A DNA stretch of 64,000 nt from a bacterium (GTDB lineage: Bacteria; UBP4; UBA4092; JAOAEQ01): positions 12,580 to 76,579 of the forward strand of contig JAOAEQ010000011.1 of assembly GCA_026416715.1 (NCBI GenBank). Reading direction: 5' to 3'. Shown here one piece after another: positions 7,117 to 8,772 of the stretch. Under the pieces are notes generated by a model. The model worked only from the letters and a program-made list of their open reading frames with translations. It made no database searches and was not told the origin of the DNA. A program made the position numbers and the translations under genes. The stretch's first letter is position 1. Every line of letters starts with the position of its first letter.

Positions 7117-7207
7117 GGAGAGATGTCCGAGTTGGTCGAAGGAGCACGCCTGGAGAGCGTGTAGGTGGGTAACTGCCTCGTGGGTTCGAATCCCACTCTC
7201 TCCGCCA
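7117..7207 (+). tRNA. tRNA-Ser (anticodon GGA)
   Basis: 91-nt type II tRNA. Acceptor GGAGAGA/TCTCTCC, anticodon loop CTGGAGA, long variable arm, T-loop GGTTCGAATCC, encoded CCA end. Confidence 0.9.
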
Positions 7208-7380
7208 GAGTACGCTAAACCTTTATCTAGCACAAGTAAAAGTTTGTTTTATATCGGGAGGGAAACAAAACAAACTGCTAAATAACCTAAACACAATATC
7301 AGTTCGAACTTTATTTTAACCAGCAGCGGTTTTATACTTTTTCATTGATTGATTTTATATTTTTTGTTAATATGAGAGAA

Positions 7381-7505
7381 GATGAAAATGCAAAAGTAAA
7401 CAAAAAATATTGAGTGAAAATTTCGGCTTAACTCAAGACGATTTAGCCAAGAAAGTTAATATTAAATACACTACGCTTATAGAGCTCGAAAAGTGGAGCA
7501 GTTAA
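7381..7505 (+). pseudogene. Frameshifted, truncated XRE-family helix-turn-helix regulator remnant
   Basis: ATG at 7381 gives MREDENAKVNKKY*. After an A6 run the +1 frame reads LSENFGLTQDDLAKKVNIKYTTLIELEKWSS*, matching the XRE HTH consensus (GLTQeeLAkklgvs.stIs.iErG). It stops prematurely with no DNA-binding C-terminal helices. Confidence 0.4.
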
Positions 7506-7595
7506 TCAACCAAGTGTTTAAACAATGGCAAAAATTGACAAAACTCGCTGGGTGTTAGTATTGAGAAGTTAAATAAATAAACCTGGCCAAACATT

Positions 7596-8708
7596 ATGCG
7601 ATATTATATTGATTTATTTTCTCCAGAAACCGCAAAAGCTTTTGCAGATTCATCTCAAGATGTAACTGGGTTTCGTATTTCTCGAAAAACTTATGTAGAA
7701 AATCAAAAAATCGGCCTTGGCGACAGATTTATTTGTTATGTTACGAGGATACAAAGATTTATAGGTGTATTAGAAATACAAAGCGATCCTTATATTGATA
7801 ACATACCAATACTTACTGCGGAAAACGATCCCTTTGTGTTAAGGTTCAAAGTAAAAACGCTTGTTTGGTTACCATTAGAAAAGTCTATACCTATCCATAT
7901 TGATGAATTATGGAATAACCTTTCTTTTACAAAAGGGCTTGCTAAAGACAACCTTAGATGGATATTTATGGTTCGTGGTTCTCCTAAGCTTTGGCCGCAG
8001 AAAGATTGCGAGCTTATTGAAAAAGCATTGTTGGAACAATCTAAAATTCAGAAAGATTACAGCTTTTCCGAAGAAGAATCTAGTAAATTAAAACCTCAAA
8101 AAATAAGAGTAAGTGATAAAAAAGAAATAATAGTATCGGTACCAGAGGAAGAAGTTACAGAAGAAATTGAGATTAAAGAAGAAGATAGGAAAGCAATCGC
8201 TATTCAAGCTAAACTTGCGGAAATTGGAGAAAAACTCGGCCTGAAAATATGGTTACCAAATAGCGATAGAGTTAAAGTTTTAAGCATTTGGAAACCTAAA
8301 AATGAAGACATACTATTAAACGAATTACCCTTAGTCTTTGATGATACAACACTTAAAACAATAAGAAATATAGATGTTTTATGGATAAAAGGACGTTCGA
8401 TCGTTAGAGCTTTTGAAGTAGAACATACGACTTCAATATATTCTGGGATTCTAAGAATGGCAGATTTATTGGCACTTCAACCTATGCTCAATATTAAAAT
8501 TCATATTGTAGCGCCTTCTGAGCGTAAGGAAGCTGTTTTCAGACAAATAACAAGACCGGTTTTTTCTTTAATCGGCGAAAACTCTCTTTCGGAAGTATGC
8601 TCTTATATTTCATATGATTCGATTATAGAATTAGCTCAGGAAGAAAGATTAGAGTTTATGAATGATACAATTGTAGATGAGTATTCTGAGTTTTTTGGTG
8701 AACAATAA
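7596..8708 (+). CDS. EVE (PUA-like) domain fused to a PD-(D/E)xK-superfamily-like nuclease domain; putative modification-dependent (type IV) restriction endonuclease
   Basis: The N-terminal ~150 aa match the EVE fold pattern (YYIDLFSPE..., GDRFICYV...GVLEI.SDPY, LRFKVK, WIFMVRG..LW). After an acidic linker (EEEVTEEIEIKEED), the C-terminal domain shows a D...ExE pattern (IDVLWIKG...RAFEVEH), the BamHI/BglII-like PD-(D/E)xE variant. The gene is markedly more AT-rich than its neighbours. Confidence 0.6.
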   Translation: MRYYIDLFSPETAKAFADSSQDVTGFRISRKTYVENQKIGLGDRFICYVTRIQRFIGVLEIQSDPYIDNIPILTAENDPFVLRFKVKTLVWLPLEKSIPIHIDELWNNLSFTKGLAKDNLRWIFMVRGSPKLWPQKDCELIEKALLEQSKIQKDYSFSEEESSKLKPQKIRVSDKKEIIVSVPEEEVTEEIEIKEEDRKAIAIQAKLAEIGEKLGLKIWLPNSDRVKVLSIWKPKNEDILLNELPLVFDDTTLKTIRNIDVLWIKGRSIVRAFEVEHTTSIYSGILRMADLLALQPMLNIKIHIVAPSERKEAVFRQITRPVFSLIGENSLSEVCSYISYDSIIELAQEERLEFMNDTIVDEYSEFFGEQ

Positions 8709-8772
8709 TCTCGTTTTATCTGTGGCAAGTTTAACCGTTTATTTTATTCCGCAGAATTAACTTCTACAATCA

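Follow-up and report, generated by a model that had tools for sequence, protein, structure and literature searches.

A low-GC two-gene block beside tRNA-Ser carries a predicted modification-dependent restriction endonuclease in a UBP4 bacterium

We examined a 64,000-nt stretch of a bacterial contig of the UBP4 lineage (GenBank assembly GCA_026416715.1, contig JAOAEQ010000011.1, positions 12,580 to 76,579; below, the window), in which a block of AT-rich DNA separates the gene for tRNA-Ser(GGA) from the gene for a Peptidase_M19 dipeptidase (M19; Table 1). This block is probably a cassette of two genes, about 1.4 kb long, that was acquired horizontally; it consists of the remnant of a small XRE-family helix-turn-helix (HTH) gene and an intact gene whose 370-aa product is predicted to be a single-polypeptide, modification-dependent (type IV-like) restriction endonuclease. 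No further open reading frame (ORF) is present between positions 7208 and 8772. Coordinates are those of the window, except where they follow the number of another locus (L).

Acquisition of the block

The M19 protein was scanned against one genome per species, and the best relative was a metagenome-assembled genome (MAG; L001) whose M19 is 63% identical. In L001, a tRNA-Ser gene lies 137 nt upstream of the M19 gene with nothing in between. Because this relative joins tRNA-Ser to M19 without the block, the nuclease gene of the window is an insertion, located on the 3′ side of the tRNA gene as a first, sequence-only reading of the locus had proposed. The synteny shared by the two genomes is limited to the tRNA with some 50 nt beyond it, and M19. 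Translated alignment (tblastx) of L001 4907-5053 with window 7115-7261 shows homology continuing ~50 nt past the tRNA end, and the 18 nt that follow the nuclease stop codon (8706-8723) are similar to L001 5121-5137, just before M19 (shuffle fraction 0.026). Since homology to L001 stops at ~7261 and resumes after the nuclease stop codon, the extra DNA spans ~7262-8705. A small hairpin is found at 7241-7276, across the left limit. We propose that a cassette of roughly 7262/7295-8705 was acquired horizontally and inserted between the host tRNA-Ser and M19 genes.

The tRNA genes of the two genomes are identical at 85 of 91 nt. Their anticodons differ (GGA in the window, CGA in L001 4909-4999), as does position 37, and one tRNA gene may have undergone anticodon remoulding between these related genomes.

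The block stands out in composition as well. Positions 7208-8770 (1563 nt) have a GC content of 0.323 against a window mean of 0.405 (sd 0.027 for 1563-nt windows), ~3 sd under the mean and the lowest value for any stretch of that length in the 64 kb. The GC profile that the sequence-only reading had suggested as a check therefore bears out its AT-rich block of ~1.6 kb. The nuclease ORF has both the lowest GC (0.329) and the lowest GC at third codon positions (GC3, 0.222) among 46 large ORFs, for which GC3 averages 0.369 (sd 0.068).

The nuclease family is spread widely across hosts. The 120 homologues listed, of 5335 in a large protein collection, are 62-84% identical to the window protein, and hosts among these matches include Aenigmarchaeota, Parvarchaeum, Bacteroidota, Deltaproteobacteria, Kerfeldbacteria (candidate phyla radiation, CPR) and Elusimicrobia. 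Flank GC could be measured at 31 homologue loci: at 28 of them the GC content of the gene does not exceed that of its surroundings, and at 23 it is lower by at least 0.05 (0.33 versus 0.62 and 0.34 versus 0.53, for example). Relatives occur on six IMG/VR viral contigs, and none was found in INPHARED phage records. No methyltransferase gene adjoins the nuclease gene in the window, L081, L124, L125 or L126. The description of the block as a defence islet is thus supported, in that its cargo belongs to a defence-type family that has spread horizontally.

Some of our observations pull the other way. The empty site is known from the distant L001 alone, the sole relative that shows both flanks of the block, and other relatives have different M19 neighbours; L138 (M19 65% identical), for instance, carries another upstream gene. 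Because L001 is distant and M19 neighbours vary among relatives, these comparisons constrain only loosely when the insertion occurred and whether it is unique. Furthermore, housekeeping genes at 56.6-62.7 kb, together with a response regulator gene in the last 7 kb of the window, are nearly as AT-rich as the nuclease gene (GC3 0.23-0.30), so that composition alone is weak proof of foreign origin in this contig. The locus combines two marks of a tRNA island, presence or absence at one tRNA gene and atypical composition, with a distant comparator for the first and a similarly AT-rich far end of the window for the second.

These same facts are what a native, vertically inherited gene pair would draw on, its low GC being local compositional heterogeneity: the core genes come close to the nuclease in GC3, and synteny on the M19 side is poorly conserved among relatives in any case. 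We nevertheless regard this explanation as very improbable, given the block-free junction of L001, the unrelated genomic contexts of the nearest homologues (79-84% identical), and the distribution of the family across domains at 62-84% identity with a GC content mostly under that of the host flanks.

Two further relatives were inspected upstream of M19. In L127 (M19 78% identical), the 101 nt that are visible contain neither the 3′ end of the nuclease gene nor a tRNA. In L129 (M19 67% identical), the contig starts close to a copy of a ~190-nt repeated element described below; the 12 codons visible upstream of that copy are uninformative as to the presence of the nuclease gene. On the other side of the window's block, the upstream neighbours both encode membrane proteins: one is a PMT_2-type GT-C glycosyltransferase, and the gene for the other lies at 5393-6850. 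The flanks are thus as originally described, the second membrane gene being without a Pfam match.

The low-GC3 genes belong to an abrupt change in composition at ~56.6 kb, from GC3 values of 0.31-0.48 for the 39 ORFs before 55.9 kb (the nuclease gene excepted) to 0.23-0.30. Just ahead of this shift, the ORF at 55904-56542 is a high-GC outlier (GC 0.528, GC3 0.60). Either the MAG contig was joined chimerically at this point, or the shift marks a true compositional domain; both could be the case. Separately, three homologue loci that have no XRE gene (L085, L093 and L100) share a conserved stretch ~60 nt 5′ of the nuclease gene, translated in one frame as '..YYSGGG..' or 'FYSGGG', which may be a leader or ribosome-binding region travelling with the gene.

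A reader-like domain joined to an NmeDI-type nuclease-like domain

The window protein is identical (100%) to a database entry, P0001, whose record is labelled only 'hypothetical protein'. The 5335 homologues bear the precomputed Pfam assignment PF27126 (NmeDI_C); the window protein itself has no match at threshold in the local Pfam copy, and a sequence search of the PDB returned a chance match only. We modelled the protein with AlphaFold, using 50 relatives; the model has a mean predicted local distance difference test score (pLDDT) of 91.5 and resolves two domains with a disordered acidic linker between them.

The N-terminal domain adopts a PUA-superfamily fold resembling EVE and YTH domains, with pLDDT values of 96-98 across residues 1-70. 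Its best Foldseek matches are PH1033 (1wmm/2hd9; E 2e-8, TMt 0.75-0.78) and MJECL36 (2p5d; E 1e-6), two EVE-type proteins from archaea, with numerous YTH readers of N6-methyladenosine (m6A) coming next; the domain is thus a PUA-like pseudobarrel whose nearest solved structures are EVE structures. At the sequence level, NCBIfam PRK00809 matches at 8e-5, under its cut-off, and the Pfam EVE profile matches 16 of the 50 aligned family members at E ≤1e-3 (best 3.6e-8). Residues conserved across the family in this domain include G42, D43, Y48, R54 and G57.

The C-terminal domain is homologous to the NmeDI_C family, which includes the biochemically proven restriction enzyme R.NmeDI. The REase_II profile of PADLOC (PDLC03534) matches residues 188-328 at 2.9e-14, over positions 167-312 of a profile whose length, 351 positions, equals that of R.NmeDI. 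Modelled alone, the domain reaches a pLDDT of 95.6, and its top Foldseek matches (EcoT38I at 6e-3, BsaWI, SgrAI and EcoO109I) are type II restriction enzymes. D260 is invariant in the family, and E274 and E276, located on adjacent strands, are at least 90% conserved; these three residues would form the active site.

Domains of this same type occur behind different N-terminal domains. We found 178 plasmid records that match the C-domain only, and most of the 15 listed among them are labelled type II restriction endonucleases. NmeDI_C is also seen at the C-terminus of 420-500-aa proteins (P0149-P0258) whose N-terminal regions have no Pfam match, and P0173 combines it with HNH_repeat units associated with homing endonucleases. 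This points to a single nuclease module on which sensor domains are exchanged.

Compared with its three closest homologues, the nuclease gene has a dN/dS of 0.10-0.12 at a dS of ~1. The gene is alive and under strong purifying selection.

From the reader-plus-nuclease architecture, and by analogy with the published EVE-HNH enzymes, the protein is expected to depend on modified bases. Its EVE/YTH-like domain would detect modified bases in DNA entering the cell by flipping them out, the base being either 5-methylcytosine or 5-hydroxymethylcytosine (5mC/5hmC) or N6-methyladenine in DNA (6mA), and the NmeDI-type domain (D260, E274-x-E276) would then cut the DNA. Because the N-terminal domain has YTH-like features, 6mA is as open a candidate as 5mC. 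A methyltransferase partner would not be needed, because only modified DNA would be attacked.

Four points count against this assignment. First, the Pfam EVE profile (PF01878) scores the window protein at 15.3 bits (E 0.021) against a gathering score of 23. The name 'EVE-nuclease' given to the gene at the outset is therefore sound for the family and for the fold, but the window protein itself falls under the Pfam EVE threshold. Second, the third motif position is a glutamate and the canonical lysine is missing (D...ExE). A comparable E-x-E motif is present in BamHI. Third, the fold match of the C-domain is weak, with a best E of 6e-3 and a template-modelling (TM) score of ~0.4. Finally, the activity of this exact EVE-NmeDI_C family is a prediction from sequence and not biochemistry.

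The assignment nonetheless gives a 'hypothetical protein', known from thousands of metagenomic sequences, a role that can be tested: it might cut DNA containing 5mC, 5hmC or 6mA. Modification-dependent enzymes serve as tools for epigenetic mapping, and the combination of an EVE/YTH-like reader with NmeDI_C is uncharacterised.

The XRE remnant and the tRNA-Ser address

The gene preceding the nuclease was called a decayed XRE-HTH gene in the sequence-only reading, and this is what we find. A 35-aa fragment matches HTH_3 (E 6e-4), and the DNA of the remnant aligns to intact XRE genes in L123 and L125, which lie 13-15 nt 5′ of the homologous nuclease genes. Relative to the 3′ part of the intact L123 gene, the window copy carries three indels and a CAA to TAA nonsense change, and three-frame translation reveals an extra frame break close to its start. 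The orthologue in L125 (4727-4987) is intact and encodes about 67 aa, and that of L081 is broken, as in the window.

We suggest that this small gene would originally have acted as a controller or repressor of the operon, and here it has been destroyed by frameshifts and the stop codon. The L125 XRE protein matches the restriction controllers C.BclI (1.2e-4) and C.AhdI (3.8e-3) and the antitoxin-type regulator HipB(Lp) (6.7e-3), with better matches to SinR and the 434 repressor. Controller (C) proteins are encoded by intact small HTH genes, and the window copy, a pseudogene, falls outside that definition. While functional, the XRE protein probably throttled expression of the nuclease upon arrival in a new host.

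Upstream of the XRE gene, a three-way alignment of the window, L081 and L125 contains conserved blocks. Within this region lies the palindrome AGTTCGAACT (7301-7310), which might serve as an operator, and a possible promoter can be read by eye (TTGATT at 7345-7350, a 17-nt spacer, and TAATAT at 7368-7373). A consensus scan for promoters and terminators, however, stayed below threshold at the left end of the cassette and returned nothing over background. The nuclease gene would now probably be transcribed, unregulated, from this conserved cassette promoter. The description of the islet as old and decayed accordingly fits the broken XRE gene but not the nuclease gene, which is full length and under purifying selection, nor the promoter region, which is conserved. 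The locus illustrates that a transferable defence unit can be as small as one gene and its promoter.

A small XRE gene directly before an effector gene also resembles HigA/HipB-type antitoxin operons, and the pair could be read as toxin-antitoxin-like, the XRE protein neutralising or repressing a toxic nuclease. The weak match of the L125 protein to HipB(Lp) would fit, as would the occurrence of EVE domains in toxin-antitoxin contexts (PMC7641849). An essential antitoxin could not be lost while the nuclease persists, however, and the fate of the XRE gene argues against an antitoxin role: it is dead in both the window and L081, the nuclease gene of the window is intact and selected, and no XRE gene lies upstream in any of the 28 inspected homologue loci at ≤72% identity. 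We consider such a pair extremely unlikely.

XRE-linked cassettes are found in four lineages, represented by the window, L123 (84% identical), L081/L082/L083 (79-80%) and L125 (72%). The L123 contig is too short for genomic context, which leaves three informative loci: the window, L081 and L125. In all three, a tRNA-Ser gene is located upstream on the same strand (L081 5323-5410, L125 3238-3323), with two genes (PRT-like and GrpB) separating it from the cassette in L125. These tRNA genes belong to the hosts and are not part of the cargo, because their sequences differ strongly and the flanking genes are unrelated. An association of the whole family with tRNA genes was rejected, as tRNA-Ser was nearby in 0 of 38 further metagenomic loci with homologues at ≤72% identity, loci at which no upstream XRE gene was found.

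DNA homology among the cassettes begins ~70 nt 5′ of the XRE gene. On the right, homology to the window ends at the nuclease stop codon, and between L081 and L125 it continues into a ~190-nt element. This element is common to unrelated genomes and has a GC-rich hairpin core (GGTGGGCGGAAAGGGGG...TTCCGCCCGCC). In L081 and L082 the cassette does lie between inverted repeats, which are two copies of this element. The window lacks the element, Rfam contains no match to it, and it displays no convincing conserved structure.

No integrase gene was found in the window block, L081 or L125, and in these loci the tRNA 3′ end is not repeated beyond what chance would give; the best match to the 3′ part of the tRNA within the window block is 7 nt long (shuffle fraction 0.9). 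For the window, the absence of both had been noted from the outset. Several candidate repeats were considered and dropped. The best left/right pair, at 7222-7252 and 8715-8747, is not significant (shuffle fraction 0.10), and a 17-nt pair at 7310-7326 and 8738-8754 is within chance as a flanking repeat. The string GTTCGAA at the ends of the cassette, considered as an att remnant of the tRNA T-loop, is palindromic and belongs to the conserved promoter region; alignments to the tRNA end are not significant in the three genomes. In L125, the last 15 nt of tRNA-Ser (3315-3329; ACCCTCCGC...) match 4433-4447, after the PRT-like and GrpB genes, at 13 of 15 positions; this match could indicate that the two genes were inserted later, but it is not significant (shuffle fraction 0.22).

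The 3′ ends of tRNA genes are classic att sites, and the block might be what is left of a bigger island or prophage, which would have entered at tRNA-Ser by its own integrase and then lost the remainder. The position of all three informative cassettes downstream of a same-strand tRNA-Ser favours this, as does Draconibacterium orientale (L126 3752-6119), in which a 70% identical homologue follows a tyrosine integrase gene by 128 nt with only a 38-codon ORF between them; that copy is preceded by ~1.7 kb of non-coding DNA with internal repeats and followed by two reverse-transcriptase genes of group II introns. Yet the block contains no integrase fragment, none of the three loci has a tRNA-end repeat, and L081 and L125 contain essentially the same compact XRE-nuclease unit, starting at the same left boundary. 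Because repeated independent deletion to one unit with one boundary in three genomes is improbable, the block does not look like the residue of something bigger, and we judge this history unlikely.

We also considered whether the XRE and EVE-nuclease pair is a discrete, integrase-less mobile cassette targeted to the 3′ flank of tRNA-Ser and moved in trans by an unseen recombinase or by the ~190-nt element. This seems to us rather improbable; if true, it would constitute a new minimal route for defence genes between phyla. Apart from its association with tRNA-Ser and the ~190-nt element, nothing about the locus is unusual. The tRNA-Ser preference raises the question of why the cassette repeatedly adjoins this gene without an integrase or att scars.

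Elsewhere in the window, tRNA-Met(CAT) and tRNA-Leu(GAG) genes (11107-11296) lie 28 nt apart between an EamA-family gene and an M55 D-aminopeptidase gene, and no islet is evident at that site. The L081 contig carries a fluoride riboswitch at 9700-9764 (- strand; Rfam 35.4 bits, just over the gathering score) that is unrelated to the cassette.

Table 1. Features of the window and copies of the ~190-nt element in other loci
Feature	Position	Strand	Remarks
tRNA-Ser(GGA)	7117-7207	+	host gene, left edge of the insertion site; ARAGORN, Rfam tRNA 55 bits
native spacer 3′ of tRNA	7208-7261	+	still homologous to block-free L001 (tblastx)
cassette left end, conserved upstream/promoter region	7295-7373	+	DNA homology to L081 5642-5717, 76%
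XRE-family HTH pseudogene	7372-7580	+	former small regulator, 15 nt 5′ of nuclease gene
nuclease gene, 370 aa, full length	7596-8708	+	predicted modification-dependent restriction endonuclease
N-terminal domain, residues 1-150	7596-8045	+	PUA-superfamily EVE/YTH-like fold
NmeDI_C domain, residues ~196-370	8181-8705	+	putative catalytic D260, E274, E276
D260	8373-8375		putative catalytic
E274	8415-8417		putative catalytic
E276	8421-8423		putative catalytic
right junction and native spacer ahead of M19	8706-8772	+	homology to other cassettes stops at 8705
Peptidase_M19 dipeptidase gene	8773-9858		downstream neighbour of block
purC	56657-57571		low-GC3 housekeeping gene
UbiA-family gene	59389-60300		low-GC3 region
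proB	60401-61522		low-GC3 housekeeping gene
obg	61631-62656		low-GC3 housekeeping gene
rplU	63136-63507		low-GC3 housekeeping gene
~190-nt element	L081 5442-5639	-	inverted pair around cassette
~190-nt element	L081 7113-7295	+	inverted pair around cassette
~190-nt element	L125 6149-6345		follows cassette
~190-nt element	L129 37-240		188 nt upstream of M19
~190-nt element, partial copy	L096 5128-5196		

Comparison with known systems

As a small block of atypical composition 3′ of a tRNA gene that is present in one genome and absent from another, the locus resembles tRNA-linked islets and integrase-less cis-mobilizable elements (CIMEs). Unlike these, it has no flanking att repeats that we could find and no integrase nearby in the window. 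The arrangement of a small XRE-family HTH gene 13-15 nt before an endonuclease gene is that of the C-protein operons (C.AhdI, C.BclI), from which the window locus differs in having no methyltransferase to coordinate and a pseudogene for a controller. The MspJI and PvuRts1I/AbaSI families share the same working principle, an SRA-like base-flipping reader of modified cytosine combined with a PD-(D/E)XK nuclease that cuts at a distance. Their reader is an SRA rather than an EVE/YTH domain, and their nuclease domains are unrelated in sequence to that of the window protein.

The C-terminal domain is homologous to R.NmeDI of Neisseria meningitidis, a 351-aa protein characterised as a type II restriction enzyme (PMC2095814). 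In contrast to the window protein, R.NmeDI has no EVE domain, its gene overlaps that of a cognate C5-methyltransferase, and its target is unmodified RCCGGY, cleaved on both sides. In overall organisation the window protein resembles the EVE-HNH enzymes TspA15I, VcaM4I and CmeDI, which likewise place an N-terminal EVE-type PUA-superfamily reader before a C-terminal nuclease and, being encoded by solitary genes with no methyltransferase partner, follow type IV restriction logic (PMC6765204, PMC7897488). TspA15I and VcaM4I cut DNA containing 5mC or 5hmC, and methyltransferase genes are rarely near genes of this class (PMC6765204, PMC7897488). The window nuclease differs from these in being of the NmeDI_C (D...ExE) type instead of HNH, with a reader that resembles YTH domains no less than classic EVE domains. 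Fusions of EVE to PD(D/E)XK nucleases are a common predicted class of type IV enzymes, described as 'a substantial variety' (Bell et al. 2020, PMC7641849), and the window protein shares their core architecture and predicted role. The locus is a new case of a known and common kind, in which a predicted type IV restriction gene stands alone within an islet.

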